Shown here: one piece after another, positions 37,675 to 54,500 of the stretch
Layout of the letters: each line of letters opens with the position of its first letter
How positions within the stretch are numbered: the first letter of the stretch is position 1
NCBI GenBank assembly: GCA_965263045.1
Contig: CBDHGK010000025.1
Span: forward strand, 14,368-78,367
Source: Terriglobia bacterium
GTDB lineage: Bacteria; Acidobacteriota; Terriglobia; 20CM-2-55-15
DNA: 64,000 nt
Direction: 5' to 3'
Position numbers and translations under genes: made by a program
Notes under the pieces: model-generated
What the model was told of the DNA's origin: nothing
Databases searched by the model: none
The model's input: the letters and a program-made list of their open reading frames with translations, nothing else

Positions 37675-38654
37675 GCGACAAACGCGGCATGGACTACCTG
37701 CGCCCGTTTTTGCCGGGCCTCGAATCGGTCCTCGAAGATGAGGACGTCAGCGAGATCATGATTAACGGACCTCGTAACGTCTGGATCGAAAGCCGCGGTG
37801 AAATCCGGCCCCATCCCGCGCCCGGCCTCGATGAGGCCGCGCTGGAACGAGCGGCCATTCAAATCGCGCGGCCCCTCGGCCTCGATCCGGCCACCGCGCC
37901 CATTATCGATGCGCGCCTCGACGATGGCTCCCGCGTGGCGATCTGTGTGCCCCCGGCCGCGCCGCATGTTGCCATCACCATCCGGCGATTCGGCAAGCGG
38001 AGCTATTCGCCCGAGGATCTTGTGCGCTTCGGCTCACTGCCCCAAGAAGTCCTGGACGCGGCGCGGACCGCGCTACTGGGCCGGCGAAATATCCTCGTGT
38101 CGGGCGGAACGGGCTCGGGTAAGACCACCTTGCTCAATGCCCTGGTCGAGTTGCTCCCCGCCGACGACCGCATTGTTTCCATCGAGGACACCCTGGAACT
38201 CCGGATCGACCGGAAAAACTGTGTCCGCTTCGAAGCGCGTGGGATTGACGGCGCATCGGTGACGATCCGTGACCTCGTCAAGCACGCGCTCCGGCACCGG
38301 CCCGACCACATTGTGGTCGGCGAGGTCCGGGGCGGCGAGGCCGCCGATCTCTTGCAGGCGCTCAATACCGGACACGGTGGGAGCCTGACCACAATCCACG
38401 CCAACAATGCCGAGTCAGCCCTGTCCCGGCTGGCGACTTGCGCCATGCAAGGCGAGACGGACTTGCCGTGGGAAGTCACTTGCCGGGGCGTGGTGGACGG
38501 GATCTCCATGGTGATTCACATGACGCGGCGCGAGGGGAAGCGGTACGTCGAAGAAGCCCTTCACGTGAGCGATTACGACGCCGCAAAGCGGCGCTGGCAC
38601 TACAGGCCCGTTGCGTTCGCCGACCCCCAACTCGAACTGAAGCAGGTGCGGTGA
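37671..38654 (+). CDS. virB11: VirB11/TrbB-family ATPase
   Basis: SEIMING, GGTGSGKTTLLNAL, IEDTLEL, LRHRPD.IVVGEVRG, NTGH.GS.TTIHAN. Confidence 0.93.
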   Translation: MSDKRGMDYLRPFLPGLESVLEDEDVSEIMINGPRNVWIESRGEIRPHPAPGLDEAALERAAIQIARPLGLDPATAPIIDARLDDGSRVAICVPPAAPHVAITIRRFGKRSYSPEDLVRFGSLPQEVLDAARTALLGRRNILVSGGTGSGKTTLLNALVELLPADDRIVSIEDTLELRIDRKNCVRFEARGIDGASVTIRDLVKHALRHRPDHIVVGEVRGGEAADLLQALNTGHGGSLTTIHANNAESALSRLATCAMQGETDLPWEVTCRGVVDGISMVIHMTRREGKRYVEEALHVSDYDAAKRRWHYRPVAFADPQLELKQVR

Positions 38655-38812
38655 TGCCCGACAACGCTGCCAGGAGGATGAAACAGAGGCGGGCCGGGAT
38701 TGTCAGGGCGATGCTTCTACTGGTTCGCGGATACAACGCGGCAAAGAATCTCTGCTTAACGGCCCCGATCTGGCCGGTAAAATGTGATAAGGATATGGAG
38801 GTTTGCGAGGAC

Positions 38813-39727
38813 ATGAACGATAAATCAAAACCTACACTCTCTCTGGTAACGCCTCAAGCGCGGCGCCACTACACCCGATTAGATCAGGTGGATCGGCTTG
38901 TCAGGGCCGGGGAGTCGGATTCGGACATTGGGTATATGGGACGGTTGATGGCGCTGTGCAACCTGCCTCGCACCAACCTTGGCAACCAGCTTCAATACGA
39001 ACGCGACAACGGCCCATACTCGCTGGTCATGGTCGCGGGGGCTAAGAACAAGCTGCCATACGGTAATATTCCCCGCCTGCTGATGACTTGGGTTTGCACC
39101 GAAGCGGTGCGGACTCAAAGCCGAAGATTATTTTTGGGAAATTCTCTTTCCAATTTCGTGCGGCTGGTGGGTGTTGCAGAGGGCGGTGGGCCTCGGACCC
39201 GTCTTCGGGAGCAAATAGAACGCCTGTTTCGCTGTTCTATCTCGCTGATCTACAGAGACGCGGAAGGTTCATCAAGCGTGAGTTCTCAGATCGCCGACGT
39301 GACAGAATTTTGGTGGGACCGGAAGCCCGATGGTGTGCTGTGGCAGAGCAACATCGAACTCGGTGAGAAGTTTTTCAACGAGATCATCCGCCATGCGGTG
39401 CCTGTGGACATGAACATCCTGAAGGCCATCATGCGGTCCTCTATGGGGTTGGACCTGTACCAGTGGCTCAACTACCGGACGTTCGGGATTCAACAGTCTA
39501 TTCGGTTGACTTGGCCCCAACTCTACCGCCAATTCGGTGCGGACCCTTCCAGAGCTGCCGAGAAGAACCCTGTTGATAACTTTCGGAAAGACTGTATCCG
39601 GGAGTTGAAGAAGATCAAGGTAGCTTGGCCCGGGCTAGACTACACAACTCCAAAGGGAGCCCTTGTGCTGCTTCCCACAACTACCCCATCCGTTCCGCCG
39701 CTTCAGTTCCCGCTACTCTCCCGCTAA
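38813..39727 (+). CDS. repA: Plasmid replication initiator RepA (RepA_C-like), copy 1
   Basis: LCNLPR, LPYGNIPRLLMTWVCTEAVRT, LGNSLSNF, HAVPVD, LDLYQWLNYRT; iterons downstream. Confidence 0.85.
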   Translation: MNDKSKPTLSLVTPQARRHYTRLDQVDRLVRAGESDSDIGYMGRLMALCNLPRTNLGNQLQYERDNGPYSLVMVAGAKNKLPYGNIPRLLMTWVCTEAVRTQSRRLFLGNSLSNFVRLVGVAEGGGPRTRLREQIERLFRCSISLIYRDAEGSSSVSSQIADVTEFWWDRKPDGVLWQSNIELGEKFFNEIIRHAVPVDMNILKAIMRSSMGLDLYQWLNYRTFGIQQSIRLTWPQLYRQFGADPSRAAEKNPVDNFRKDCIRELKKIKVAWPGLDYTTPKGALVLLPTTTPSVPPLQFPLLSR

Positions 39728-39779
39728 TCTGGGTACGCACAGACTCCCCAGCGCTGGTGTAATGGAGCGGAAAAGGAAT

Positions 39780-40040
39780 CTATATAATAGGGACACTGCT
39801 GTTTTGTAACCATATTCCTTTTTTCCACAACTTCCTGTCTTTTCAGCGAGTTTTCCTGCCCCAAACACCACGCCTAACGCAAAAGATTATTGTCCCAAAC
39901 ACCACGCGTAACTGAAGGCTCATCGCCCCAAACACCACGCCATACATATATAAAGACAAATATAAGATTCGGACATTTAGTAGGCACTACGATTCTGTGA
40001 AAAACAATCAAATCTAAGAATAAGCTCGGGGGAAATTCAA
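39780..40040. other. Candidate oriV1: DnaA box, three iterons, AT-rich tract
   Basis: TTTTCCACA at 39821; CCCAAACACCACGC at 39860, 39894, 39927; AT-rich 39941-40040. Confidence 0.75.
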
Positions 40041-40589
40041 AAAATCAGCCTCACACCACCGAAGGCCGCACACGCTACTCCGTCATCTTCTCCTGCCCCT
40101 ACAAGAACGGTAAACACTCGATGACGACACAGACCTTCGGTCCTAGCGAGCTCCGGGTCCTCGCGAAAGTGGCTATCATGCGCACACGTGCCTCTTCGAA
40201 CCTCAGCAGGGTGGGGCGGCCCCCAGGAAGAGTAACGGGCGCCTAGCCTTAGCGTGCAAAATCGCACCGATCTGCCTGATACCTTTACTACGACCTAGTC
40301 AACATCGATCGATGCACCGGATGCTCGGGTTTGTACCTGGACAAAGGGGAGTTGGCAATCATCCTCAAGGCCCAGTCGAAACGATCCCTTGGAGAGGGCT
40401 GATACGGACCTGGCGTTGTCGGGGTTCGTCGGCGTGCGCTTCTTGAACGCCTTCGCCGCATCATCAGTCGCGGGGAGCCGGACGTTTCGGAAGCCGGCGA
40501 TCAACTCGTCCGCCCACTCGCCCCACTCGTCTGCGACTCCTGGAATCAAGGCAGGGTTCTCATGACGCTGTCTGCACCAGAACCCAACA

Positions 40590-40695
40590 GGTCGCGCGCA
40601 AGAGCGTGCATCTGCTCGACCTTCAGGAGGCCGCGTCGGATGCGCATCCGGAGCGCAGGCCCGGACAGGTATTGGAGGATGAACTCCTTGAGCAT
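40590..40695 (-). pseudogene. Tn3-family tnpA internal fragment
   Basis: KEFILQYLSGPALRMRIRRGLLKVEQMHALARD resembles the Tn3 catalytic-E region. Confidence 0.65.
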
Positions 40696-40778
40696 CCGTC
40701 CGGACCGGATCGTTGCGTAACCGCCTTGACGCAATCCCGCCATGGAAGGGAAACAAAACTGAGATAATCTGTGAGGCG

Positions 40779-41075
40779 ATGAAGGACGATGCCCATTATC
40801 GGCACTTGCGCGTGGACTGGGTCGGCGAGAGAGCCACCGAGTCGATCACGCTGTGCGGCATCAAGAATGAAGACAGCGGAAGCGAATCGGCGCTCTGTCC
40901 CAGTTGTGCCCGGGTCCGCGATGCCCTGAAGGTTTGCGGGTTCGGCCCGGAGAGCCTGCGAGAGGTATTTGATACGCTCCGGGAGATCGGCGCTTCCGAG
41001 GTGGCTGCGAAGATGGAGGTGCTTCGAGATCTGGGGAGGCAGCTGGATATGCAGGATCGGTCGCATCTCAACTAA
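40779..41075 (+). CDS. Small Cys-containing hypothetical protein
   Basis: GAGG RBS before MKDDAH; H...TLCG...CPSC pattern. Confidence 0.4.
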   Translation: MKDDAHYRHLRVDWVGERATESITLCGIKNEDSGSESALCPSCARVRDALKVCGFGPESLREVFDTLREIGASEVAAKMEVLRDLGRQLDMQDRSHLN

Positions 41076-41489
41076 AACCGTCTCCGGGAAACCCGGGGGC
41101 GGTTCAATCGTTGACGATTTCGAAGATCAACCGTGTGGACCCCGGTGAAATCCGTTCCCTCAAAGCCCGACTGGCCAAAAGGTGCTGACGATCGGGGAAT
41201 CAACCACGGAGTGGCGGGGCAGGGAGGCGGGCCGGTGAAATGAGCGCCTACCTTGCAGTGCCTTTTCATCGGGCTGTATTCTCTGATACCGCTCCCAGGA
41301 AGCTGCCTGCGAACACTGCGTTCCACACGAGTCGACACGCAAAGACGAGCCGGAAAGGCGAGAGCACCCTCCACTGCGAGAGGCCAGTGCATCAAGTCCC
41401 GGCCAGGATGGATGCACAACAGCCAGGATCAAGGATGGGGCGTTGTTCCAGCGGTTCGACAAGCCATCCGCGAGGCCACCTGGGCGCAC

Positions 41490-41541
41490 CCTCCATCCGG
41501 CTCATCATCAAGCGTCGGGCGGCCGCTGCGGGCGTTGAGGC
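41490..41541 (+). pseudogene. Tyrosine recombinase fragment
   Basis: SIRLIIKRRAAAAGVE, the helix that precedes the GHSLR motif of Cre-like integrases; very short. Confidence 0.45.
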
Positions 41542-41921
41542 TCAGCGACCAGTTCGTATTCGGGTGGAACCTCGTTGAGTTCTTCCTGCATCGTGCCCGT
41601 GCGGTTGGTCGCCAGGAGGATGTAGCGGAACCGCCGGCCTTCGGGGTCCAGCGCCATGATGACGACGGCTTCGTTGCCGCCGAAGGCTGTCTCGCCACCT
41701 TGGGCGCCTGCCACACGGTAGCCCCGCGCGCCCGCCTCGTTGATCTCGTCCTCCATGGTGCCGGTGCGGTTGGTGGCCAGGATCAGATACTTGTCGGACT
41801 GCTCCGCCTGTTGAGCCGTTGCGGGCAGGGTGAAGGCGAACAGCGCCAAACCGATAGCGAGGCCGGTGAGCGTGGTGGTCAAGACGTTGTTTCCCCGAAG
41901 TGTCCGTAGCCGTCCTGTCAT
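41541..41921 (-). pseudogene. Truncated secreted repeat protein
   Basis: Signal peptide ...LPATAQQ; repeat Y.lLATNRTGTM..E.NE twice; cut off by the recombinase fragment. Confidence 0.6.
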
Positions 41922-42271
41922 TTCTCTCCCTCGTTGACTGGCCCCGGGCCGTGCGGCTAAGGTTTCCTCGATCGGAACCAGCCTGTTTCGTTTACGTTCC
42001 ATGGTTTATTCTTCAATGTGCCTTACACAAGGCAGGAACAGCCCTGCCGGCGTCTATTCCGGATCCATCTACTCTGGGACCTAACTTGTGCCGTCGCGCT
42101 GAACTTATGCCATCTACATTATTCCCAGTGTTGAAAAACCGGATGATAGGCCATCCTTACGGAATGATCCATGCAACAAGGCCGCAAGTTGGCGGTCAAA
42201 GTTTTGTCCAATTGCCGAAGAACTATACTGAGATAAATGTCCCCTCGGGCGGGGAATGAAGGAGTGATGCG

Positions 42272-43609
42272 ATGTCTGACCGTTTATTGGATCGATTCCT
42301 TGAAAAAGGTCTATTGGATCTGAAAGGCAATGATGAATGGTATGGGCGCATCAGCTCGACGGCGAAGTCGCTGTCCACTTATCTGCGGGCCAATCCCGAA
42401 GATATGGTCCCTTTCACCTATGCTGCGCTTTTATCTGATGTAGGCGACGAAGATCCGGCCATCGAAAAAACACTAAGTCTTCTAAAAGCTGAATGGAGGA
42501 CCTATTCCTCGGTGTCGATGGCGTCACCAAAAGCCATGCTGCGCGCGATCGTTTTAGATGCCTTGCTGGCGAATGCCGAGTCGGACGATGCGACGAAGTC
42601 GGCGCTGGCGCTGTTGCTAGAAAGTGCCCTACCACATCTTTCTGTAGGAAAAGAAGAAGAAGTCTGGAAGACGGTACTTGATGACCTGCTCTGCGCTGTC
42701 GAACGTAAAGCTGAAGTAGCGTGGACGGTTCCAAGCCGGATAAGCGTGCCGGCTTTCCCGAAGATCGATGTGCCGACAATACGCTTTTCCATGAAAGACG
42801 GAAAGTTTGATAGACAAGTACTTGAAAAGGGTATGTATGCTGCTGCCGGCCCTACAAATGCGCAGAACGAACAGACCAAAGGCAACCAATACTCGTCGAA
42901 CCAAGGACAAGCCTGGAGCAACGAATTCGTACCCCTGGCCACCTCAGCGATCAGCGAAGCCATTTCCGCTGCTACAGGTACCAAAACAGCCTCAGCGAAT
43001 ACCGAAGCTTTCGCCGAGGCGCTGACTGGTGCAATCGTTGATCGCTTGGAAGCCTTCGTCGATCAGATAGTATCGACCACGCACGGCGTTGAAATGCGCT
43101 CGCGACTGTTGTGGTGGAAAGAGGCGCTTGTGTCGCCCTCGTCGCTTGTCAGCTACCGCGACATCGACAGCAAAGCCGCTCCTGGCCTCATGGCATACGA
43201 CTATCAAGCTGTGTTGCCGTCCCTCGCGCCAGCAAGTGTATCGGCGTTCCTGCTTGAGACTGTGCGAACGCTGAAACCTGATAACGAAGAGGCCCCGCTC
43301 GTCGAATGGCTGCAAGCCTTGGCCGAGGAACCGCATGCCGAAGCGCTTAGGGAAGAGATCCGTGAACGCGCGTTTGCAAATGGGTATCGACCCTTGGTGT
43401 CGCTCGTAATCTTGGATGAGCCAGGCGCAAAGTCAATCAAAGATCGGACGGTGTTCGCCCCCGAACTGTTGCTGACCGCTGGTCAATTCGGGTTACTCAT
43501 TTTTCTCGAGCTTCAGGCGATGAAAGCCACAAAAGAGGTCGTCTCTTTCGCGGTAGAGGAAACTTCCGAGAGCACCGATGTCGATGCGGATCAGGAGGAG
43601 CAAGCATGA
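42272..43609 (+). CDS. GTPase-associated system all-helical protein (GASH-like)
   Basis: AAGGAG RBS; helical protein with MYAAAGP and RSRLLWWKEALVSPS; first gene of a coupled operon before two GTPases. Confidence 0.8.
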   Translation: MSDRLLDRFLEKGLLDLKGNDEWYGRISSTAKSLSTYLRANPEDMVPFTYAALLSDVGDEDPAIEKTLSLLKAEWRTYSSVSMASPKAMLRAIVLDALLANAESDDATKSALALLLESALPHLSVGKEEEVWKTVLDDLLCAVERKAEVAWTVPSRISVPAFPKIDVPTIRFSMKDGKFDRQVLEKGMYAAAGPTNAQNEQTKGNQYSSNQGQAWSNEFVPLATSAISEAISAATGTKTASANTEAFAEALTGAIVDRLEAFVDQIVSTTHGVEMRSRLLWWKEALVSPSSLVSYRDIDSKAAPGLMAYDYQAVLPSLAPASVSAFLLETVRTLKPDNEEAPLVEWLQALAEEPHAEALREEIRERAFANGYRPLVSLVILDEPGAKSIKDRTVFAPELLLTAGQFGLLIFLELQAMKATKEVVSFAVEETSESTDVDADQEEQA

Positions 43610-44574
43610 GCACCGCGCGGCTGGACAGATGCCAACTCGAGGACTGCTTTTTCCCAAGTACTAACTGCGGGGCAGGCTTTATGGATGTCGCTCAGTGTTC
43701 TCATTATCAGGGGGACACCGGTCAAAGTCTAGCTGATCTCGCCGCAGACGATGAGCGGTTTCCATGGACCGGCCGACCATTTGGCCTGAAAGATCTCCGG
43801 TTTCTATCGTCCGTCAGGAGACCGCATGTAGTTGGTGTCGCAGGTCTAGCGGATGCGGGCAAGACCACCCTCTTGGGCATGCTTTTCCTGGCGATCTATC
43901 GTGGGCATCAAATCATGGACGGCGCAGTGTTCGCTGGCTCCTTCACCCTTCAAGGTTGGGAGAACATCACCCGTTATCTTCAGCTCAATTCTGACGGTCC
44001 GATCCAGTTTCCGCCGCACACCACACGGTCAGGGCGATTTCCAGGGTTGTTGCATCTGAGGTTTTCGGTGGACGGGGGAAGTGATCGGGATTTTCTACTT
44101 AGCGACGCGCCAGGCGAATGGTTCTCTCATTGGACTGACAATGCCGAAGCAGAGAATGCCGCGGGGGCGCGCTGGATCGCCACCAACGCCGATAATCTGG
44201 TGATCGTTGCGGATACAGAGGCGCTGATAGGGTCAGAGAAGGGGCCAGCTCGGACAAATTTAGAATTCTTGATTCGACGTGTGCAGAACAACTTCCGGAA
44301 GGATGCCGTTGCGCTTCTTTGGTCGAAGACTGACCTTCCACGTCCGAAGGAGTTAGTTGCGACTGTTGAACGCCATTTCAATGACTGTTTCCCGATGGCG
44401 CCGGTGTTTTCAGTTCAAGTCCCTGACAAAGACGAAAAGGCGGATGAGACGACTTTGGGAGCTTTGAGAGAACTGTTTCAGTGGGCGTTCGCTACGGTGC
44501 CCGAAAGGGTAATTGTGGATTGGCCGGCACCGAAGGACGTGGATCCGTTCTTGTCGTATCGAGGCTGGCGATGA
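43606..44574 (+). CDS. TRAFAC-class GTPase 1 of a double-GTPase system
   Basis: Cys-rich N-terminus; G1 GLADAGKTT, G2 PPHT, G3 DAPGE, G4 SKTD. Confidence 0.88.
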   Translation: MSTARLDRCQLEDCFFPSTNCGAGFMDVAQCSHYQGDTGQSLADLAADDERFPWTGRPFGLKDLRFLSSVRRPHVVGVAGLADAGKTTLLGMLFLAIYRGHQIMDGAVFAGSFTLQGWENITRYLQLNSDGPIQFPPHTTRSGRFPGLLHLRFSVDGGSDRDFLLSDAPGEWFSHWTDNAEAENAAGARWIATNADNLVIVADTEALIGSEKGPARTNLEFLIRRVQNNFRKDAVALLWSKTDLPRPKELVATVERHFNDCFPMAPVFSVQVPDKDEKADETTLGALRELFQWAFATVPERVIVDWPAPKDVDPFLSYRGWR

Positions 44575-45410
44575 AAAACACGCCAAGATCGATTCTCCTT
44601 CTCGGTGAGTCCGATGTCGGCAAGACGCACTATGGCGCACAGATTTTGCGGCGGCTGAATGCAGGGCCCGGCGCGTTTGAACTTGTCGACGGGGCAAACT
44701 TGAAACCATTCAAGACGGCCCTCGATAAGATCAGTCAGGGCTTGTCAGCGCCTCATACGCCACGCGCCGAATACAGCGAAAGCATCTGGACGCTCCGGCG
44801 GCGGTCCAGCGGTTCCAGCATTGATCTCGTTTGGCCCGATTATGGCGGTGAACAGGTAAGCGGAATGATCGATGGCAAATCCCTGCCTGCCGCATGGCGC
44901 GACAAAATCGTCAAGGCATCGGGTTGGATATTTATGGTGCGCCCGAGCCAAGTTCCGTTGCCCGAGGACATCCTCACACGGGACGTGTCGCTTCCCGCGG
45001 TCGCCGACCCGGCGAACTCGACGCTGTCGCCACAATCGAAACTGATCGAGGTTCTGCAAATGCTGCAGTATAAGAAACGTTCTTATCTGGACCATAAAGG
45101 GATGTTGCCCCCCTTAGCTGTACTTTTGTCATGTTATGACGAATTAGCCACCAAGGAACCGCCCGGGGCTTATTGCCGTGCCCATCTACCGATGTTCGAT
45201 CAATACTTGTCGTCAAACTGGTCAAAGGACCGCCGGCGGATTTTTGGTGTTTCGCCCTTGGGACAGCCGCTGAGCCAGACAAATCGGGACGAGGATTACG
45301 TCGTATCCGGACCGGAAAAGAGAGGATTTATTGTCGATGAACAAGGGGACAAGAAGGTAGATCTGCTCGCCCCCATTGAATGGCTTCTTTCTGTTTCGGA
45401 TGCGCCTTGA
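44571..45410 (+). CDS. TRAFAC-class GTPase 2 of a double-GTPase system
   Basis: G1 GESDVGKT, PHT, G3 DYGGE, variant G4 SCYD; ATGA overlap. Confidence 0.85.
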   Translation: MKNTPRSILLLGESDVGKTHYGAQILRRLNAGPGAFELVDGANLKPFKTALDKISQGLSAPHTPRAEYSESIWTLRRRSSGSSIDLVWPDYGGEQVSGMIDGKSLPAAWRDKIVKASGWIFMVRPSQVPLPEDILTRDVSLPAVADPANSTLSPQSKLIEVLQMLQYKKRSYLDHKGMLPPLAVLLSCYDELATKEPPGAYCRAHLPMFDQYLSSNWSKDRRRIFGVSPLGQPLSQTNRDEDYVVSGPEKRGFIVDEQGDKKVDLLAPIEWLLSVSDAP

Positions 45411-45419
45411 GCTACCTGA

Positions 45420-47906
45420 ATGGAGATCGCGTTCGAAGAAATCATGGTGGGCGAACGGGGCCGTGCGCATGCCGTGCTGGCGTCGAGCCTGCCGGGCGAC
45501 ATTGCACGGTCCCTGGCCCACCACCTTGACTTGCCTGGACAATTGCCGCCGGGTTTTCAATTGGAGAACTATGTTTCCGGGTTCCCCCATGGAGGCCGAT
45601 ATGTGGTGGCGCGAACGAGTCTCGACCGTAGCGCCGCTCGACAGGGGATGGTGTTCAGTCATGCGCTAGTCGCTGATTTAGGGACGATCGGTGAATTGAT
45701 CGACATCGCTGCCGTGTTCGAACGCCTTGAAGGATCCCGCCCTGAAAGACCATTCACATCAAAAACGACGGTCAACGCTGCTGAAAGCAAGATAAGGGCG
45801 CGGCCTTCACCAGCGCTCTGCGACATGCTCGCGACAAGTTCGGATCGTCCAGTCGTCATTGGAGACCCTTCGGCGCTGGAGGGGGTAATCAGCACCCTAT
45901 GGCCGAGATTGTTACCAGGCATGCGCCGCGAAATGCGATTTCGATTGAGTTTCGGGCCAGAAGAAAGCGACATCGCAAAAGTCCACATCGTGGGTGTCCC
46001 CCGGGTCACCGTGACGCGCTGGCCTGCCGCACGCGTGATTGATCTTAAACAGGGCCTGGAAATGCCGAAAACGGCGGCCGGGAGATTCCTGAGCGGTGAA
46101 TTCAAAGGAGATTTAAGCGCGTTTCTCGCAAAACTATCGATTGACTGCAGAAGCTACGAAACCCTTGATCTTGCCTCGCGCGCCCTTGAACTCTCAAAAG
46201 TTAAACCGGCGTTTGAGAAAACTCTGCCTGCCCTACGGCTCATTGGCAGCTTGCAACCTGATCCAAGTAAGGGTGCGGCCATCAAGGCGTCGCTGTTGGG
46301 TCAACTCCCGAATCGCCCCGGTCCGAACAGTGTCCAAGAGTTCCTTTCCCTTCGAAACCTCGATCTTGCGCCGTTTCTGGAAAAGGACACGTTTCTAGAC
46401 AAGATTACGGAACGGTTCAGCCGCCTCTTTGAGACCGACGTAAACGTGGACGCATTGTCTCCTGTCGTGCAATCGGCATTCGATCCGTCCCAAGCGGCGG
46501 AAGACTGGCGCAACGCCTGCTGCACTGCGCTTGGTCGGCTGTCGCCCGTCGGAGCGCTTTCCGTGGCGCCTCTGGTTTGGACGATGTTGTCGACACGCCC
46601 CGAAGTCGGACGGTTTCTTCTTGATCAGGTCGCCGGCGTAGAGTCCATGGACCGCGCCATGGCTGCTTGCCTGGACAAAACGGGGCAATCGCACAATTCC
46701 GACCTCTCGCATGCGTTGATAGCTGCGGGGTTCGTCCAGACTGAGACTGCAACCCTGATAAATCGTCACGATGGCGACTTGGCTGAGGCGCTAAAGGAGG
46801 CCTGCGAGCGAGATCGGCAGCGATACGGAAATGGTGCGATCGGACATATTCTTGGACTGATGGAGCCAGACAGACAGGTGGCTGCGGCTCTTGTCGTCGA
46901 TGACCAGATCGTCACGACCACAGCCGCAGCCGCGGTTGCATCAGCACCAATGCTTTTGGCTGAGCTATCGCTCCGCAAGCCTCAGGTTCAGAAAGTGTGG
47001 ATTGAAGCATTGAAACGTGAAAACAGCGCCTGGCGAATCAGGACAAATGTCGTTGCGTTGCGCAATGAGGTGTTCGACAGTCTCTTGGATGACGAACTGG
47101 CATCGGACTTGATCGAACACCTGGTGTCGAGCCCCTTAGGGAATGTTTTGGACTATCCACGACGTGCGGCTATTTGGCGAGCACTTCCCGACCGTTGCCG
47201 CAACGTATGTTTGGCGTCGACGGCCGAAGCCTGGGCCAGATCGCTTCCGGATAGAGTTTTCCACGCTGAATATCTTGCTCCTGAGTATGAGCTGTCCATC
47301 GTCCTCGCTTCGCCGAAGATGCGGCAGGAGATGAAAACCGCACTGGAACACCTTGCGTTCGACGGTGTACTAAATGTGTTCACACGAAACGCTCAGCTAC
47401 CGGATGCACTCTTGACGGAGGTCTTCGCAACCTTCTACGGGTCCAACCGGCATCCTTCCGGTGAAGAATTCGCCCGCGCCGCACGATTGGTAACAGCGAG
47501 GGACTGGAGCCACTTCACCCGCAGCCTATTGAAGCGCTATGGCCTGACTGACGATTTGCGCGGGTTTTTCCAGATTTGCGCTAATCATTTGGACCTGTGG
47601 GATCGAGTATGGTATCGGTTGCGGCGTCCGTCGACGAACGACCTGCACGACCTTTTTGTCGAAACCGCCTGCGAACTTTATGCCTCGGGCCCGATGGATG
47701 GCGAGATTTGGGCTCGAGCCGGCGGTAATCCATCCCAACTCGACGTCTCCGGGACCGGAAAGCGACAATGGGACGCGGCCATCCGGAAAATCCGCAATGG
47801 TAACCGAGTGCGCGCATCATCTTTGATCGCTGCAATGCGCGCCGACTACCCTTCGAACAATCGACTGGACTATTTGGCCAAGGAATACCGTGACGAAACA
47901 TTTTAG
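45420..47906 (+). CDS. GAP1-N1-like protein with C-terminal EAD1 adaptor domain
   Basis: N-terminal H..LASS..YVSGFP..YVVART.D..RQGMVFSHAL; C-terminal ELYASGP..IWARAGG.PS.L...W..A...L...DYPSN. Confidence 0.8.
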   Translation: MEIAFEEIMVGERGRAHAVLASSLPGDIARSLAHHLDLPGQLPPGFQLENYVSGFPHGGRYVVARTSLDRSAARQGMVFSHALVADLGTIGELIDIAAVFERLEGSRPERPFTSKTTVNAAESKIRARPSPALCDMLATSSDRPVVIGDPSALEGVISTLWPRLLPGMRREMRFRLSFGPEESDIAKVHIVGVPRVTVTRWPAARVIDLKQGLEMPKTAAGRFLSGEFKGDLSAFLAKLSIDCRSYETLDLASRALELSKVKPAFEKTLPALRLIGSLQPDPSKGAAIKASLLGQLPNRPGPNSVQEFLSLRNLDLAPFLEKDTFLDKITERFSRLFETDVNVDALSPVVQSAFDPSQAAEDWRNACCTALGRLSPVGALSVAPLVWTMLSTRPEVGRFLLDQVAGVESMDRAMAACLDKTGQSHNSDLSHALIAAGFVQTETATLINRHDGDLAEALKEACERDRQRYGNGAIGHILGLMEPDRQVAAALVVDDQIVTTTAAAAVASAPMLLAELSLRKPQVQKVWIEALKRENSAWRIRTNVVALRNEVFDSLLDDELASDLIEHLVSSPLGNVLDYPRRAAIWRALPDRCRNVCLASTAEAWARSLPDRVFHAEYLAPEYELSIVLASPKMRQEMKTALEHLAFDGVLNVFTRNAQLPDALLTEVFATFYGSNRHPSGEEFARAARLVTARDWSHFTRSLLKRYGLTDDLRGFFQICANHLDLWDRVWYRLRRPSTNDLHDLFVETACELYASGPMDGEIWARAGGNPSQLDVSGTGKRQWDAAIRKIRNGNRVRASSLIAAMRADYPSNNRLDYLAKEYRDETF

Positions 47907-48954
47907 GGGATATGCCTTGATCGTGACAGTCGAGCAGAACACGCATGATCGACTTCCCGACCTTGGTGAAAGCGTTCGTGCTGACGGCGATCTCATCGAA
48001 CGTGTCCTGTTGGATGAAGAGGTTTGCGGTTATGGCTCAGACCGCGTCGTACGCCTCAAAGGAACAAGTGCGACGGCTGAGAACATACGCGCCGCACTGG
48101 ACGCGCTACTCAGAACCGTCGCTCCCGAGGATCCGGTTTTCTTTTATTTCTCAGGCCACGGCGATGCGTGTTCATGCGACGGATCCGACGGGGCTTCATT
48201 ATTTCCATGGGATGCCGATATTGGCCGGTGTGAGAATGTTCTGACGTCTGGCGTGTTGGCACAGGCCTGGGGCGGCATCCCCTCGAAACGTAAACTCGCC
48301 GTGGTCGATGCCTGCTATTCGGGTGGCCTCAGAATGACAAAGTCTACAGTGGCACCGGAGAAACGTCTCTCAAGACCTCAATTGAACGCACTGTCAGACG
48401 GAGAAGGATCGGTTCTGATCTCATCGAGCCGATCTGTCGAGCCGTCTCTGATCCTGTGGCGAGACTCCACGAGCCTTTTCACAAAACATTTGGCAAACGG
48501 ATTGCTGGGGCACGGTGGTCACGACGGAGGCGGTTTTGTTCGGGTGTTCGACCTCTTTAATTACGTGGCGATCGAGGTCCGGCATGAAGCGCCGGGGCAA
48601 TCCCCGGTCTACGCCGCCTATCATCAAGACCAGAACTTCGCGGTCGCCTGTTGCGTGGATGCAGCACGTCGAAAGACGCGTACGCCCCTTACAGAGATGG
48701 CGGCCAATGGCGACCGGCTACAGGCGATCACGGCGGTGTTCTCCTCCCTCTATCCTTTAGGGCCGACGGACCAGGCGATTTGGGAACGCGCTGGAGGTGA
48801 TCTTTCGCGGCTGACACTAAGCGGGCAGGGGCGGGCAGATTGGTTTAGGGCCATCCAGTTGCTGGACCGCGGCGGCGGATCGCTCACGATTGAAGGGCTT
48901 TGCCGAGAGGCATTGTCAGACTACCCGCGAAATCACGATCTTGAGCACCTGTAA
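47890..48954 (+). CDS. Caspase-family (C14) peptidase with C-terminal EAD1 domain
   Basis: YFSGHG (His) and VVDACYSG (Cys) dyad, SLFTKHL, QSP; C-terminal LYPLGP..IWERAGGDLSRL...W...DYPRN. Confidence 0.9.
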   Translation: MTKHFRGYALIVTVEQNTHDRLPDLGESVRADGDLIERVLLDEEVCGYGSDRVVRLKGTSATAENIRAALDALLRTVAPEDPVFFYFSGHGDACSCDGSDGASLFPWDADIGRCENVLTSGVLAQAWGGIPSKRKLAVVDACYSGGLRMTKSTVAPEKRLSRPQLNALSDGEGSVLISSSRSVEPSLILWRDSTSLFTKHLANGLLGHGGHDGGGFVRVFDLFNYVAIEVRHEAPGQSPVYAAYHQDQNFAVACCVDAARRKTRTPLTEMAANGDRLQAITAVFSSLYPLGPTDQAIWERAGGDLSRLTLSGQGRADWFRAIQLLDRGGGSLTIEGLCREALSDYPRNHDLEHL

Positions 48955-49016: not shown

Positions 49017-49624
49017 CTAGCAGCCCGAGGTAGAACTACCTTTAGCTGAGCGGCAGTTCATCCGTGTCCGAAGCGAGCGACGGGCCGGGAATCCGCTCCA
49101 ATCGCGGTTCAGGGTCGATGAGAAGCCCTTCATAGTCGTTGCAGAGCAGAATCAGGAGCAGGAGGGCCGCCACACACTGGCCCTGGGGCCCCCGGGGCGT
49201 GCCCTTTCCGTGACTGTGACGCAACAGAAGGCTGAGATTCAGAGCGGCGTACTGAATCAGGATACGTTTGAGAATATTGTCCCTGTGCCGGAGGTGTACC
49301 CGTTGCATGCCGCCCGTTTCCAATGTGTGAGCGAACGGCCGTTCCAGCATGAGGCCCCGCTGACGGAGCAGGTGTTTGCCGCGTTCGCCATGGATCCGCC
49401 GCCGGTTAGCGTAAACCGCCTCCTTCTCTTCGGTCTTGTTCTTCCAGTTGCGCCGCCCGCGGCTCGGTTCCGAACTGTAGGTCCGGATTCCCACTTCTCG
49501 GAACACCGTCATCGTGTCGTTGCTGTGATAGCCCTTGTCGGTCACCAGTTCACTGAAGAAGTTGTCGCGGAGTTTCAGCCCGGGGTCGGCGGCCAGCCGT
49601 TCCATCTGGCGGGCCGCTTCGGTG
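49017..49624 (-). mobile_element. IS1182-like transposase 3' remnant and element end
   Basis: VTDKGYHSN, RG..LERPFAH.LETGGM.RVHLR...NL; terminus GGGCTGCTAG on the minus strand near 49017; 5' part missing. Confidence 0.7.
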
Positions 49625-50262
49625 AGCGTTGTTGCATGGATCATCCCGAAGGATGTCTTATCATTGTGTTTTTCAACACAGGGGATAACCTAGATGCCAC
49701 ATAAGTTCAACGCAGCGCGACGGCACAAGTTTGATAAGGCGCAGTACCGGGTGATCAACTGGGCAGAATATAACGAGAGCCTGCGCCAGCGGGGTGATCT
49801 GACGGTTTGGGTCAGTGATGAGGCTCAAAGTGTGTGGCGCGCGCCGCACCGCACGTCACGGGGTGGCCAGCGGAGATACTCGGATCTGGCGATCGAGACA
49901 TGCCTGACGCTGCGCACGGCGTATCGGCTGGGGTTGCGACAAACGCAGGGGCTGATGGGTTCCATCGGCACGCTCATGGGGCTGGATATACCGGTGCCGG
50001 ATTACTCCACACTGTCGCGTCGCGCAAACGGCTTGAGCATCGCTCAGGTGATGAGGCAATCCGGATCTGTGCCTGTCCATCCGGTGGTGGACAGTACCGC
50101 CTTGCCCGGGCTCCTGGATCAACTCGATGCCCCGGTCACGGGCTTTCTGGCTGACGGCGCCTAATGACCGCACTCGGACGGCCTGTGTTCGAACGCATCG
50201 CCTGAGCTACGGCTTGGGGAAAGGGGGAATTCCATCCCCGCCCCAATCCATGCAACAACGCT
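49625..50262 (+). mobile_element. Internally deleted IS5-family element (638 bp)
   Basis: Perfect 17-bp IR AGCGTTGTTGCATGGAT at both ends; ORF 49694..50164 YRVINWAEYNESLRQRGDLTVW, PDYSTLSRR, VDST joined directly to LPGLLDQ...LADGA*. Confidence 0.85.
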
Positions 50263-50620: not shown

Positions 50621-51811
50621 TCACGGACGCAAATCGAGAGATGCTGTTTTTGTGTCATATGAATACTGGGTGATCGTTCCCTCCCTAATCTTCTCGACGG
50701 CATCGTCGATCGCGCCGAGGGGCACCAGAAACCATTCGCGCGGCACGACCGGGTTACCGAAACGATCCTTGATCTCGATCTCAAGGCGTGCGGGGGCAAA
50801 GATGCGGTGGATCAGGTTTTCCAGCTTGCTGCGGTTGATGTTGTAGAGCTTGTAAGTGGCGACGACCTCGACATCCGCCATAAGGAATGTTGGTTCCAGC
50901 CTTGCACCTGCGATGCGCTCTTCAACGCTTGCATTCGTGACGCCTATCTTGTGGACTAGATCGCGGTTCCCTGCGACAAACGGAAGATTGGATTTACTCC
51001 GCAGGACATAGATCGTGCCGCGGGCCTCGTCGCCGTCCTCAGTCTGGCCGGCAAACAGGGGGCCGGCCGTGGCATCGGTAATCCGTCTGCCTGCGGCATC
51101 CTTGTGGAGCGAGCGCTGAAGCGAGCGCCTGAGCATGTTGTTTTCGGTGCCATTGTCGAAGATCACCCGCAGCCGGGCGTCCTTGTCGCCATATTGTTGC
51201 GTGAACAGCTTTCCCATTTCGGCCACATAGGCTTTCTGGCCACCGACGATGAAGAACCGGCCCGGCTTGATTTCCGCCTTGAGTTCGACCGGACGGGTCT
51301 CGCGGACACCCTTATTGAGTTCCTTCTGAACCTGCTCGAAGAGCGGCCGGAACGTCTCGAAGTCCTCGCATTTCCGGCGAGTGGCGACTTCCTCCGCCGC
51401 GCGCTTTTCTGCAGTTGATCGCACATGGCGAAGCTCGGTGATGTCCGCCTCCACAGCCTCGATGCCGAGTTCGGCCAGAAGTACATCGTCGTCCATGTTT
51501 TCCGGAAACGACAATGCCGTTGCAGGTTCTCCTGTCAGAAGCGCCTGACGGTCGATCGGCGCGATCAGCCCGCGAGATTCTTCCTGTTTGCGGATACGAT
51601 CCAGCCTGACGGCATAGAGTTGCTCGAAGATGTCACGACGCTCGCCGCGTTGCGGCGCGCGGCCATGCGTCTCGACGAAGCGCTGAATCTCCTCAAAGCC
51701 TGCAATTATCCGTTCATCGCGAGGCGTGCGGCGGGCAGCCTTCGTGGGTTCGACCTCGACGCCGAGTTCGGCGAGAAGGGCGTCGTCCTGTTCCGTGAAG
51801 TCCTTAGACAT
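50621..51811 (-). CDS. YeeC-like GIY-YIG/T5orf172-domain nuclease
   Basis: GTIYVLRS, HKIGVT, ERI, LENLIHRIF, PREWFLV. Confidence 0.88.
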   Translation of the reverse strand: MSKDFTEQDDALLAELGVEVEPTKAARRTPRDERIIAGFEEIQRFVETHGRAPQRGERRDIFEQLYAVRLDRIRKQEESRGLIAPIDRQALLTGEPATALSFPENMDDDVLLAELGIEAVEADITELRHVRSTAEKRAAEEVATRRKCEDFETFRPLFEQVQKELNKGVRETRPVELKAEIKPGRFFIVGGQKAYVAEMGKLFTQQYGDKDARLRVIFDNGTENNMLRRSLQRSLHKDAAGRRITDATAGPLFAGQTEDGDEARGTIYVLRSKSNLPFVAGNRDLVHKIGVTNASVEERIAGARLEPTFLMADVEVVATYKLYNINRSKLENLIHRIFAPARLEIEIKDRFGNPVVPREWFLVPLGAIDDAVEKIREGTITQYSYDTKTASLDLRP

Positions 51812-53855
51812 CGGCGGCCGCGGCTCTCATCCGGGCAAGGAAGGCCACTCCTTCGGCCATGCGCTTCTCCCAGGCATCAGGCGATGTGATCGAAGGCAGC
51901 CGGCCGCGCTCCTGCTTGAACTTCAAGGCACGACTTGCGAGGTCGCGGGCCTCCTCGGGCGTAAGCTGGACCTTCTTCGCAGAAATGACGGCGGCAACCT
52001 GCTTTAGCCTCTCTTCGCTCATCGTCTTGGCGAGGATGGCATAGGCTTCGCCAAACGGATTGATCCGGTCAATCAGGTCAATATTGAGATCGCGCACATC
52101 CATCGCGAATCGCCGCACGCCGTCGATCAGGGCCGTACTGCTACTGTTCTCCGGATCGGCGTCACCAACCGCGATCTCTTTCGCCTTTTGGGTCAGGTTC
52201 AGGGCGGCAATGGCATGCTGGCGCACGGCTTCCCGATTCTCTTCGTTGAGTCCGGGGTACCTGTCCTTGATGATCTTGCCCATCCGCACCTGGGTCAGTT
52301 CCTCAGGCACAAGCTCATCATCGAAAATCCCACGCTCGACCGCGGTCTTGTCCTGCACAAAGGCGGTAATCACCTCGTTCAGGTCTTTCTGGCAAATGCG
52401 CCCGGCCTCCTTGCTCTTCGGCTCTGCCAAGCCCTTGATCTCGATCTGGAACTGGCCGGTCTTCTCATTGAAGCCGACATTGCATTTGCCGGAGTCGTAG
52501 CCCCCTTCGCCATAGTCGAAGCCTTCGACCGGCCCGCTAGCCTGCACCTTGGGCGCGAAGTTAAAGCGCGGAGCCAGCACCTGTTCCATGAGCAAGCTTG
52601 CCGCGATGGCCTTCAGCGTGTCATTCACGGCCTCGGTGACAGCGTCTTCGGAGGCATCCGGTTCCGCAATCAGGTTGGTGAAGCGGGACCGGGTCTTTCC
52701 GGGCGCGTCGCGCGTGGCGCGGCCGATGATCTGCACGATCTCCGTCAGGCTGGACCGGTAGCCGACCGTGAGCGCATGATCGCACCAGATCCAGTCGAAT
52801 CCTTCCTTGGCCATGCCAAGGGCGACGATGATGTCCACGTGGTCGCGGTTGTGTTTTTGCGCCGGGTCCCTGAGCGCCGCCGCGACCCGGTCTCGACGGG
52901 CCGGATTGTCATCGACCAGGTCGGCGATCCGGAGGACACGGCCTCCGGGCGTCTTAACGAGCTGGAAGCCGCTTGCAGGATCGGTTCCCTGCCACTCGCC
53001 CAGTTCCTCGATGATGTGCTCGACCTCCCGGACCTTGTCCTTGGTGCTCTCCCGCGAATTGACGCTCGGGATGTGAATGATCGTCTTCTCGTCCGGATCA
53101 AGCACCTCCAGGATGTCGTCGGCATAACTCCCGGTGTAGAAGAAATAGCCGATGTCGAGCCGCTTCAGATGCTCATAGCCGTTGAGTTGCTCGTAGTAGG
53201 TGTAGGTAACGGTTTCGAACTTCGCCTCGTCATCGGGCATCAGCACGGGCTCGGCATCCCCGCGGAAGTACGACCCCGTCATCGCCACGATATGCGTCTT
53301 GTCGCGTGCAACGAACTGGCCGAGATGCATGCCCAGCTTGTTGTCGGGATTGACCGAGACGTGATGAAACTCGTCCACGGCGATCAGGCGGTCGTCAAAG
53401 GCTTCCACTCCGAACTTGTCCACGGCGAAACGGAAGGTGGCGTGGGTGCACACCATAAACTCATCGCTGCTGTCGAGAAACGCCTTGACGGACTTGACCT
53501 TGCCGCCCTCGGTACCCGGCGCGCTGCAGAGGTTCCATTGCGGCCGAACGGTCCAGTCGGACCAGAAGCCGAATTGACTCAACGGCTCATCATTGAAGCT
53601 GGCCCCGATCGTCATCTCGGGCACGACGATGATGGCTTGGCGCAGATCCTGGCTGTGGACCTTGTCCAACGCAATGAACATCAGCGCCCGGCTCTTGCCG
53701 GAGGCTGGGGGCGATTTGATCAGGAGATACTGCTCCCCGCGCTTCGCCCAGGCCCGCTCCTGCATCGGGCGCATGCCCATCTCATTGGATCTGGTGGAGA
53801 CGCCGTTCCGCGCGTAGGTGACCGAGACCGAGGGGATGCTCCTGCTGGTGGTCAT
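51804..53855 (-). CDS. YeeB-like superfamily II DEAD/DEAH helicase
   Basis: PPASGKS, DEFHH, MTGS, KEGFD, QIIGRATR. Confidence 0.92.
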   Translation of the reverse strand: MTTSRSIPSVSVTYARNGVSTRSNEMGMRPMQERAWAKRGEQYLLIKSPPASGKSRALMFIALDKVHSQDLRQAIIVVPEMTIGASFNDEPLSQFGFWSDWTVRPQWNLCSAPGTEGGKVKSVKAFLDSSDEFMVCTHATFRFAVDKFGVEAFDDRLIAVDEFHHVSVNPDNKLGMHLGQFVARDKTHIVAMTGSYFRGDAEPVLMPDDEAKFETVTYTYYEQLNGYEHLKRLDIGYFFYTGSYADDILEVLDPDEKTIIHIPSVNSRESTKDKVREVEHIIEELGEWQGTDPASGFQLVKTPGGRVLRIADLVDDNPARRDRVAAALRDPAQKHNRDHVDIIVALGMAKEGFDWIWCDHALTVGYRSSLTEIVQIIGRATRDAPGKTRSRFTNLIAEPDASEDAVTEAVNDTLKAIAASLLMEQVLAPRFNFAPKVQASGPVEGFDYGEGGYDSGKCNVGFNEKTGQFQIEIKGLAEPKSKEAGRICQKDLNEVITAFVQDKTAVERGIFDDELVPEELTQVRMGKIIKDRYPGLNEENREAVRQHAIAALNLTQKAKEIAVGDADPENSSSTALIDGVRRFAMDVRDLNIDLIDRINPFGEAYAILAKTMSEERLKQVAAVISAKKVQLTPEEARDLASRALKFKQERGRLPSITSPDAWEKRMAEGVAFLARMRAAAADV

Positions 53856-54178
53856 TGGAACAAATCGGCATGGGTGCCGACACGGACGAAGTTGATCGAA
53901 CCGCCCGGGCCGACCGAATCATCAACCTGATAAATCAGCAGGAAGTCGCCACCCACATGACATTCCCGGTGGTTCGCCCAAACCCCCTTCAGCGCGTGAT
54001 CCCTCCGTTCGGGACCGAGCGGGGCGTCGTTTGCAATGAGAAGCAGCATGACCGCCTTCAGCCGCTTCATATCATATCGGCCGGAACGCGACAGTCGCTC
54101 CCAGTCCTTGACAAAATCCCGGGTATAGTCCGCCCGGCGCGGCGGTCGGGTTCTTTTATTCGCGGCTGGATTCTTCAA
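53852..54178 (-). CDS. yafQ: YafQ-family mRNA interferase toxin
   Basis: DHALKGVWANHRECHVGGDFLLIY, RVGTHADLF. Confidence 0.92.
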   Translation of the reverse strand: MKNPAANKRTRPPRRADYTRDFVKDWERLSRSGRYDMKRLKAVMLLLIANDAPLGPERRDHALKGVWANHRECHVGGDFLLIYQVDDSVGPGGSINFVRVGTHADLFQ

Positions 54179-54437
54179 GTTCCGTAAACATCTCGTTCGC
54201 GCTTGCGAATCGCGCTTTGCCCCGCTTCATCATTTCTTCCGACTCGGCCATGGCCCTTTGGGTTTGCGCGTTGGGAACTTTGAGTTCGAGGGGGAAGGCC
54301 TGATCGGCCGCGATCCGGTGGAACAGCAGGCGCACGGCATCAGAAGCCGACAGTCCCATTGCCGCCAGCGTCTCGGTCGCCTTCTGTTTCAACTCGCTGT
54401 CCATCCGGACGTGGAGCATGGAACTCGGTGTGCTCAT
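54156..54437 (-). CDS. dinJ: RelB/DinJ-family antitoxin
   Basis: VRMDSELKQKA..L..MGLS.SDAVRL...FPLELKVPNAQT. Confidence 0.92.
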   Translation of the reverse strand: MSTPSSMLHVRMDSELKQKATETLAAMGLSASDAVRLLFHRIAADQAFPLELKVPNAQTQRAMAESEEMMKRGKARFASANEMFTELEESSRE

Positions 54438-54500
54438 TCATGTCTCCTGTATCTCAATTGAGTTATGACAGATTGACCCGATCCAGTCAACTGGACGTGG

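Follow-up and report, generated by a model that had tools for sequence, protein, structure and literature searches.

The closest described relatives of the locus reported here are GTPase-centric (DO-GTPase) conflict systems of the GAP1-N1 type, which were predicted computationally (Kaur, Burroughs, Iyer & Aravind, eLife 2020, PMC7159879). In the passages of that study that deal with this type, the system is composed of GASH, an all-helical GTPase-associated system protein, two DO-GTPases, one of which carries a zinc ribbon, a GAP1 protein with a C-terminal EAD1 domain and a separate effector equipped with an EAD1 domain of its own, caspases being listed among the effectors. The DO-GTPases are proposed there to dimerise, to co-evolve with GAP1 and to act as a switch, and recruitment of the effector by homotypic EAD1 contact is likewise proposed. 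The same passages give proteobacteria, bacteroidetes and spirochaetes as the main hosts and report no association of GAP1-N1 systems with multicellularity (48/262 organisms, P 0.9998). In the relevant part of a second article, the GTPases are assigned to a septin/GIMAP-like clade (Kaur et al. 2021), and both articles draw an analogy to the inflammasome and apoptosome where they touch on the subject. Here, we analysed a stretch of 64 kb from a Terriglobia bacterium (contig CBDHGK010000025.1; hereafter the window, to which all positions refer), in which five consecutive open reading frames (ORFs) at 42272-48954 on the forward strand (6.7 kb) encode such a system.

We consider it likely that the operon is an intact GAP1-N1 DO-GTPase system with an EAD1-coupled caspase, which was imported as low-GC cargo between inverted ends of IS5-family insertion sequences (ISs) into a plasmid-like replicon with RepA and a type IV secretion system (T4SS), which also carries a type IIG restriction-modification (RM) enzyme and an AbiEii toxin gene. 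All components match in kind those given in the consulted passages of PMC7159879, including the Walker B Glu of both GTPases, and no architectural difference was found; of the three ways of coupling an effector to GAP1 named there (fusion, EAD1 pair or GAAD), the window operon uses the EAD1 pair. It differs as a lineage, since its GAP1 is only 20-33% identical to those of loci in reference genomes and its GTPases sit on a long branch of the tree. A first-pass annotation of the window had already recognised an intact, tightly coupled five-gene operon matching predicted GTPase-centred conflict systems, and the following results bear out both points, the latter as far as the architecture is laid out in the passages cited.

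All five operon proteins exceeded the Pfam gathering scores (Table 1), so that the hidden Markov model (HMM) check proposed along with the first-pass annotation came out positive for GASH, DO-GTPase, GAP1-N1, EAD1 and Peptidase_C14 alike. The opposite strand holds nothing comparable, and none of the five ORFs is shortened compared to its homologues. Adjacent genes are closely coupled: the GASH stop and the DO-GTPase2 start share an ATGA at 43606-43609, preceded by an aggagga ribosome-binding site; the DO-GTPase2 stop shares a second ATGA with the DO-GTPase1 start at 44571-44574, given a start at 44571; 9 nt separate the DO-GTPase1 stop from the GAP1 ATG at 45420; and the caspase GTG at 47890, preceded by aaggaa, overlaps the end of GAP1 (TAG at 47904-47906) by 17 nt. 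Translated from this GTG, the caspase N-terminus has the same length as in its homologues. DO-GTPase1 had been listed as an ORF from a GTG at 44481. Its start is most likely the ATG at 44571, because the homologues begin there (15 of them align from the equivalent Met) and the ATGA overlap is thereby formed. A terminator scan gave scores not above those of shuffled sequences and hence no convincing terminator. We also considered a transmembrane component and rejected it, because the top 19-residue hydropathy, found at the C-terminus of GASH, is a borderline 1.76 and is not exceeded elsewhere.

The nucleotide-binding motifs of both GTPases are intact. In DO-GTPase2, the Cys-rich N-terminus pointed out in the first-pass annotation consists of four cysteines (C9, C14, C21 and C31; nt 43630-43698), which are invariant in 16/16 sequences and make this segment zinc-ribbon-like. 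The same 16 sequences share G85, K86 and T87 of Walker A (GKT), H138 and T139 of an HT motif, as well as D167, A168, P169 and G170, and at least 90% of them have E171, which completes the Walker B motif DAPGE. DO-GTPase2 furthermore keeps an SKTD motif, of which K241 and D243 are invariant (16/16; family pattern [ST]KxD). The invariant residues of DO-GTPase1, again in 16/16 sequences, comprise G12, G17 and K18 of the P-loop (GKTH), H62 and T63 of an HT motif and, in the region of the Walker B motif DYGGEQ, P89, Y91, G93, E94 and Q95. In classical GTPases, the Asp of the NKxD motif reads the guanine base. DO-GTPase1 retains this Asp within an SCYD motif that takes the place of NKxD and has the family consensus SCWD. 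Since C188 and D190 are invariant in 16/16 sequences and the consensus can be written as SC[WY]D, SCYD is a trait of the whole family; the 'variant G4' of the first-pass annotation is thus present, although not as a peculiarity of this copy. Profile comparison identifies DO-GTPase1 and DO-GTPase2 as detectable paralogues (hhalign, 87.6% probability, E 3.5e-6, over the stretch from P-loop to Walker B).

GAP1 consists of a conserved N-terminal GAP1-N1 domain, in which D37, G54, Y61, D69, R74, G76 and V78 are invariant in 23/23 sequences, a fast-evolving middle (approximately residues 106-735) and a C-terminal EAD1 domain. Using a custom EAD1 HMM built from the C-termini of 9 caspases and 23 GAP1 proteins, we found exactly two EAD1 domains in a six-frame translation of the window, one at the end of GAP1 (4.6e-35) and the other at the end of the caspase. 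The two are 41% identical over 68 residues (E 1e-15), and the same model finds a pair of GAP1 and effector EAD1 domains in 12 loci. Within seven caspase-type operons, mean pairwise identity is 0.48 for each of the two GTPases, 0.46 for the caspase and 0.40 for GASH. For whole GAP1, the value is 0.345, which is composed of 0.44 for GAP1-N1, 0.29-0.35 for the middle and 0.415 for EAD1. This pattern of conserved ends around a variable middle would fit a scaffold whose two ends bind constant partners, the switch on one side and the adaptor on the other.

The caspase effector has an intact catalytic dyad, H90 (in FSGHG) and C142 (in DACYSG). S88, G89, H90 and G91 as well as D140, A141 and C142 are invariant in all 32 caspase sequences compared. 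In metacaspases, the Asp located two positions ahead of the catalytic Cys belongs to the basic-P1 pocket. The conservation of this Asp suggests that the effector is metacaspase-like, with specificity for Arg/Lys rather than Asp, and the dyad aligns with the SGHG and DxCHSG motifs of the metacaspase structures 7qp0 and 4afr. A metagenomic protein of 302 residues (P0170) matches the window caspase at 91% identity from residue 155 to residue 354. The ~94 residues at its own N-terminus are unrelated and contain a 35-residue piece of an SNase. We considered this protein as a recent effector swap and rejected it, as it is chimeric, truncated and devoid of the catalytic dyad and probably results from rearrangement or breakage of a copy.

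Close relatives of GAP1 and of the caspase come almost only from metagenome assemblies. Among 100 GAP1 homologues listed, identities reach 90%, nearly all proteins have ~824 residues with GAP1-N1 and EAD1, and one named source is a metagenome-assembled genome (MAG) of Candidatus Dadabacteria (70%); caspase relatives in other assemblies are up to 99% identical. When compared to 1.84 billion representatives, GAP1 matched 957 clusters at E<=1e-3, 570 at 1e-10 and 243 at 1e-30. An Atlas search with a GAP1 homologue from Afipia (P0099) returned only GAP1 clusters, and in an Atlas search with a GASH from Tropicibacter no score exceeded 0.83, a value within the range of chance.

A scan of one genome per species yielded 17 homologous loci in Acidobacteriota, Alpha- and Betaproteobacteria and Bacteroidota, of which we ran 84 of the 198 forward-strand ORFs, those at the core positions, against Pfam. 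The order GASH - DO-GTPase2 - DO-GTPase1 - GAP1 is kept wherever the contig allows. GASH stands at the same position in 16/17 loci, the exception being L008, which is cut by a contig end. Pfam matches were obtained for DO-GTPase2 in 17/17 loci, for DO-GTPase1 in 16/17 (the copy in L001 was recognised by its translation) and for GAP1-N1 in 16/17 (the GAP1 ORF of L017 lay outside the Pfam set, and its match reaches the contig end). The effector position is occupied by a caspase in 9/17 loci, eight times with a Pfam EAD1 and in L006 with a partial EAD1 detected by the custom HMM. A PNP_UDP_1 phosphorylase takes this place in six loci, fused to GAP1 in three and as a separate gene in the other three; one locus has an unknown protein together with a trypsin-EAD1 protein and an Endonuclease_NS, and in the last the position is lost to a contig end. 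No further flanking gene recurs between loci, and the unit therefore comprises five genes. In L005, GAP1 is split in two, and L007 adjoins a VirB11-like gene downstream.

A tree of the concatenated GTPases (18 rows; L006 and L008, which do not have a complete DO-GTPase2, were left out) places the window operon in a clade with support of 100/99 that comprises ten caspase operons and L011, an operon of the PNP type. The branch leading to the window operon is long (2.3), and its precise placement is therefore uncertain. The clade of Bacteroidota consists of PNP-type operons plus one of the trypsin type. The presence of a PNP operon within the caspase clade means that effectors are swapped on a conserved core, and going by the tree the effector type has changed at least twice. 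L003 (Komagataeibacter melomenusus), L004 (Tropicibacter naphthalenivorans) and L007 (a proteobacterial MAG) have branches of 0.06-0.31 compared to a median of 0.59. Their GTPase pairs are near neighbours even though the hosts of L003 and L004 come from different families, which argues for horizontal transfer.

The composition of the operon is foreign to its surroundings. Among 287 sliding windows of 6.7 kb, it has the lowest GC content (0.559 vs 0.621 in the remainder of the 64 kb), and its GC content at third codon positions (GC3) is 0.57-0.61 compared to 0.62-0.89 in 16 other genes of the window. It is flanked by an inverted repeat of ~105 bp, as found by repeat search and by pairwise alignment of the left arm with 49610-49770. 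The left arm is a solo IS5-family end and the right arm forms the first ~105 bp of an IS5-family remnant. The two copies lie in opposite orientation with both tips towards the operon, an arrangement that resembles the inner ends of a composite transposon after decay. The right remnant contains an N-terminal transposase fragment at 49694-50164 (Pfam DDE_Tnp_1_5, 3.4e-29) and resembles full IS5-family transposase genes over ~412 bp only (blastn). A further fragment of a DDE transposase, an ORF of 200 residues, lies between the caspase and the right arm, its 5' end entering the IS end at 49625. It has no Pfam match at 1e-3; tblastn aligned its residues 5-159 at 42% to IS5-family/DDE transposases of 12 plasmid records, none of which covers >=80% of the query. 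We considered an intact composite transposon and rejected it: the left copy is cut after ~105 bp, the right one amounts to 638 bp with a truncated transposase, and outer ends and target-site duplications are not recoverable. The flanks are a decayed bracket only. The lower GC content and the decayed mobile DNA on both sides, as described in the first-pass annotation, were thus found as stated.

The gene content further out from the operon is, by the families encoded, that of a plasmid (Table 1). A T4SS cluster and a first RepA_C gene lie upstream, a ParA gene and a second RepA_C gene downstream. Between a CagX/VirB9-like ORF of 187 residues and the TrbI/VirB10-like gene (region 23789-29817), the cluster is interrupted by a Tn3-family transposon (24472-27998); therefore, the transfer apparatus may be disrupted. 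The 56 ORFs of the window that were scanned outside the operon yielded no relaxase. Hence, the placement on a mobile element made in the first-pass annotation holds for the secretion genes, the coupling protein, the two RepA_C genes and ParA, but is weakened by the Tn3 insertion and by the lack of a relaxase among the ORFs scanned. Three direct repeats of 26 nt, spaced 33-34 nt apart and sharing the core CCCCAAACACCACGC, are located at 39848-39940 just downstream of the first RepA_C gene and are probably iterons of a replication origin. Closer to the operon, a 48-nt direct repeat (41570-41617 and 41735-41782, 85% identical, 165 nt apart) lies inside two overlapping ORFs, 41253-41909 (+) and 41508-42002 (-), neither of which has a Pfam, PADLOC or PLSDB match (tblastn in the case of 41508-42002). 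In PLSDB, there was no nucleotide match for the operon or the 14 kb upstream of it (megablast), nor for 39700-42271 (blastn). Rfam and tRNA scans of the whole window gave 0 matches at the gathering threshold and 0 genes, respectively.

Downstream of the operon, a block of helicase, GIY-YIG and methyltransferase genes is in parts ~75% identical to sequences on plasmids of Roseomonas, Sulfitobacter, Pseudosulfitobacter and other alphaproteobacteria and may represent a conserved module for defence or for plasmid establishment. Two further ORFs of the window were observed. One encodes 1902 residues with Calx-beta and cadherin-like domains (5870-11578) and, with ~70% GC and a GC3 of 0.89, stands far above the rest of the window. 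The other is an unusual fusion of 793 residues (15734-18115), in which approximately six ankyrin-repeat units are joined to an ArdC-type anti-restriction protein (ArdcN plus zincin-like MPTase-PolyVal).

Table 1 Features of the 64-kb window
Feature	Position	Strand	Description
Operon leader	42186-42271	+	AGGAG at 42260-42264, 7 nt upstream of GASH ATG
GASH	42272-43609	+	445 aa; Pfam PF19994, 2.9e-65, profile positions 1-397 of 398
DO-GTPase2	43606-44574	+	322 aa; Pfam PF19993, 1.1e-48
DO-GTPase1	44571-45410 (ORF listed from GTG 44481)	+	279 aa from ATG 44571 (most likely start); Pfam PF19975, 1.5e-62
GAP1 scaffold	45420-47906	+	828 aa; Pfam GAP1-N1 PF20012 9.1e-21, EAD1 PF19955 7.8e-8
GAP1-N1 domain	45438-45725	+	GAP1 residues 7-102
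GAP1 EAD1 domain	47622-47891	+	GAP1 residues 735-824; Pfam match spans 747-823
Peptidase C14 caspase effector	47890-48954	+	354 aa; Pfam PF00656 4.4e-11, EAD1 PF19955 3.9e-6
Caspase EAD1 domain	48700-48945	+	caspase residues 271-352
Left repeat arm	42083-42185		solo IS5-family end: terminal repeat, leader, frameshifted transposase-start stub
Right repeat arm	49625-49731		start of IS5-family remnant
IS5-family remnant	49625-50262	+	638 bp; 17-nt perfect terminal inverted repeats 49625-49641 / 50246-50262
DDE transposase C-terminal fragment	49042-49644	-	200-aa ORF
AbiEii-family nucleotidyltransferase toxin	723-1709	-	Pfam 3.7e-31
VirB4-like	20266-22695		
Tn3 resolvase	24472-25032		
Tn3 transposase	25035-27998		intact, 987 aa
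TrbI/VirB10-like	28414-29817		
TrbL/VirB6, VirB8, TraG/VirD4-like coupling protein, VirB11			upstream of operon
RepA_C	38438-39727		~2.5 kb upstream of operon
T5orf172/GIY-YIG protein; DEAD-box helicase with pseudomurein-binding repeat; MmeI-family type IIG RM	50621-57254	-	RM PADLOC 7e-283
ParA, second RepA_C, IS30- and IS3-like transposases			downstream of operon

Related operons travel on mobile elements elsewhere. A tblastn search with DO-GTPase1 found homologues on 9 of 72,556 PLSDB plasmids (5 conjugative, 2 mobilizable and 2 non-mobilizable) and in 1 of 50,697 phage records. An IncHI2A conjugative plasmid of Enterobacter kobei (L018; NZ_CP110879.1, 263354-269977) has, by annotated products and lengths of coding sequences (CDS), the same gene order with a caspase. 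Its GAP1 is annotated as two CDS, one of 655 residues and one for an EAD1 protein of 158 residues, the operon adjoins an integrase and an IS3 element, and RefSeq there names GASH, EAD1 and caspase. The phage record belongs to an LE1-like Leptospira phage (L019; KF114878.1, 13374-19959), where five CDS of matching lengths follow in the same order next to a phage integrase; only a GTPase and, in the last position, a phosphorylase-family protein are named in its annotation. Spread by conjugation, as suggested in the first-pass annotation, is supported only in part: what carries the operon most directly looks like a cassette bracketed by ISs, and homologues on plasmids are few.

In animal inflammasomes and apoptosomes, a nucleotide-dependent switch and a scaffold recruit a caspase via a small domain without catalytic activity that both partners carry. 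The logic proposed for the window operon, i.e. switch, scaffold, shared adaptor domain and caspase, would be the same. The parts are different: a TRAFAC-class GTPase pair stands in place of a STAND ATPase, EAD1 in place of CARD, PYD or Death domains, and the protease looks metacaspase-like. The GTP-gated, inflammasome-like mechanism and the anti-phage role put forward in the first-pass annotation are inferences; for the anti-phage role, the type IIG RM enzyme and the AbiEii gene in the window and the homologues on mobile elements provide a context. How might such a machinery operate? DO-GTPase1 and DO-GTPase2, as co-inherited paralogues, would form a heterodimeric nucleotide switch, to which GAP1 would bind via its conserved N1 domain. 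The fast-evolving middle of GAP1, and perhaps also GASH, may sense the invader, and EAD1-EAD1 contact would tether the caspase to the C-terminus of GAP1. A trigger would then alter the nucleotide state and the way in which the complex is assembled, thereby licensing the caspase, e.g. by induced proximity. Since no partner substrate gene accompanies it, the caspase would probably act on cellular or invader proteins, and their cleavage may lead to growth arrest or abortive infection.

Two groups of characterised systems invite comparison. Dynamin-like Eleos/LeoABC is a validated GTPase-containing anti-phage defence and is covered by PADLOC-DB. It shares with the window operon the use of GTPases and differs in their family, in the partners and in the effector, and no operon protein matches the PADLOC models of such systems. 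The other group consists of EACC1-caspase/Avs modules, for which a preprint (Evans et al. 2025, bioRxiv 10.1101/2025.11.14.688446) describes, in the sections on these modules, cell death upon a phage signal that requires the catalytic Cys, as well as site-specific cleavage of a dedicated, linked latent effector by caspase-like modules. Common to both is a caspase-family protease under the control of an NTPase-containing sensor, judging from the same sections; GTPases are mentioned nowhere in the preprint. The protease described there forms a fusion with a STAND (Avs) sensor and has the neighbouring EACC1 as its substrate, whereas that of the window is a separate protein, linked by EAD1 to a GTPase-associated scaffold and unaccompanied by a substrate gene.

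Several results weigh against our reading of the operon or against parts of the proposed mechanism. DO-GTPase1 does not have a canonical NKxD motif, and 'GTP-gated' is therefore not assured for this subunit. The PDB holds no chain related by sequence or profile to GASH, either GTPase or GAP1, the profile matches of these proteins being at the level of the P-loop or insignificant only. GAP1 of the window has no match to Pfam GAP1-M (PF20014) or GAP1-C (PF20052) at E<=0.1. GAP1-M is found in only 10-13% of members of N1-type Atlas clusters, hence the Pfam models of GAP1-M and GAP1-C may not reach N1-type proteins. The residue following the catalytic Cys of the caspase varies (Tyr in 13/32, His in 18/32 and Phe in 1/32 sequences), with Tyr in the clade of the window caspase. 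No obvious substrate gene is present in the operon, unlike in EACC1- or gasdermin-type modules. Cognate EAD1 pairs are 35.7% identical vs 32.2% for non-cognate ones (13 pairs, permutation p 5e-4, with kinship and composition ignored), and the cognate domain is the best match in only 4/13 rows; the signal is small and confounded by relatedness and amino-acid composition. Upstream of the operon, a promoter scan gave no forward-strand site and scores not above those of shuffled sequences. PADLOC-DB 2.0 returned 0 matches for GASH, both GTPases and GAP1, the sole match being a generic caspase model (1.2e-6); the PADLOC check suggested by the first-pass annotation thus recognised the effector in general terms and none of the four core proteins. 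In the full-text literature, we found no experimental study of DO-GTPase, GAP1, GASH or EAD1 (the sources behind the 'recently characterized' DO-GTPases of a 2026 ParA preprint lie outside this coverage), and no phenotype, binding, nucleotide specificity or substrate for any member. The first-pass annotation knew of no experimental mechanism for this type, which is in line with this purely computational literature and with the empty PDB and PADLOC-DB results for the core.

Could the operon do something other than defend its host by means of a terminal effector? The caspase might be a site-specific processing protease for a single target, i.e. GASH, GAP1 or one host factor, which then executes or signals the response. 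We give this possibility some, although clearly minor, weight. Prokaryotic caspase-like proteases that have been studied cleave a dedicated latent effector, according to the sections of 10.1101/2025.11.14.688446 on this point, and the window caspase scores 71.6 bits with the NCBIfam model 'caspase, EACC1-associated type' (NF047832). The cutoff of this model, however, is 140 bits, and no gene for EACC1, gasdermin, Pepco or another known substrate is present in the operon; as EACC1 is also missing from the flanks, we rejected an EACC1-caspase conflict module as such. Furthermore, sister operons exchange the caspase for PNP_UDP_1 or for trypsin plus nuclease and keep GASH and GAP1, and a terminal, interchangeable effector therefore fits better than processing specific to GASH or GAP1. 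A more elaborate version of the inflammasome analogy deserves a similarly tentative place. According to it, the five proteins would be a caspase-recruitment platform of non-STAND type, built on a GTPase heterodimer, with EAD1 in the role of CARD and with GAP1 middle and GASH reading the invader; the subunits, differing in [ST]KxD vs SC[WY]D, might read different nucleotides, so that invader and nucleotide pool would be detected in coincidence, and the protease would be a broad, metacaspase-like enzyme activated by proximity.

The location of the operon raises the question of whom it serves. As an addiction or exclusion module, it might kill or arrest cells that have lost the element, or block rival plasmids, instead of acting against phages. 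In line with this, it is situated ~2.5 kb downstream of RepA_C and its iteron-like repeats in a T4SS replicon and is bracketed by IS ends, relatives occur on nine plasmids, five of them conjugative, and in one phage record, and L007 also adjoins a VirB11-like gene. Most relatives, however, reside on large contigs (up to 1.55 Mb) with unrelated flanks and no conserved neighbours, only 9/72,556 plasmids carry a homologue, and no short-lived, antitoxin-like partner is evident. Defence genes are moreover common plasmid cargo, and the plasmid location therefore does not discriminate between an element-serving module and defence. On balance, we regard service to the element as improbable. Still less likely, to an extent that we would hardly reckon with it, is that the operon is inert cargo, which decays alongside dead insertion sequences and has lost its expression or function. 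The IS copies on either side are both truncated, no promoter-like forward-strand site precedes the operon, and GAP1 is in two pieces in L005 and, as annotated, in L018. The window operon itself has nevertheless kept all five ORFs at full length, its start/stop coupling and every invariant family residue that we checked, and relatives of GAP1 and of the caspase with up to 90% and 99% identity, respectively, are present in other assemblies. An intact defence-type system with a caspase as exchangeable effector thus remains our preferred reading.

Within a kind of system known from computation, the window operon is a divergent and intact member, ordinary but usable, and its parts are already named by Pfam and RefSeq. 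New are the corrected start of DO-GTPase1, the family-wide SCxD motif, the effector census, the pattern of evolutionary rates and the IS bracket, which provides a concrete example of how a cassette moves between replicons. DO-GTPase systems form a sizeable predicted class, with relatives of GAP1 alone in 957 representative clusters. Being compact, complete and intact in its motifs, and having the simplest coupling of an effector (one EAD1 pair and one protease), the copy described here is a reasonable template for first tests. The questions it raises concern a GTPase pair that may gate a bacterial caspase, EAD domains as possible homotypic adaptors and the targets of a caspase-type effector that comes without a substrate gene.

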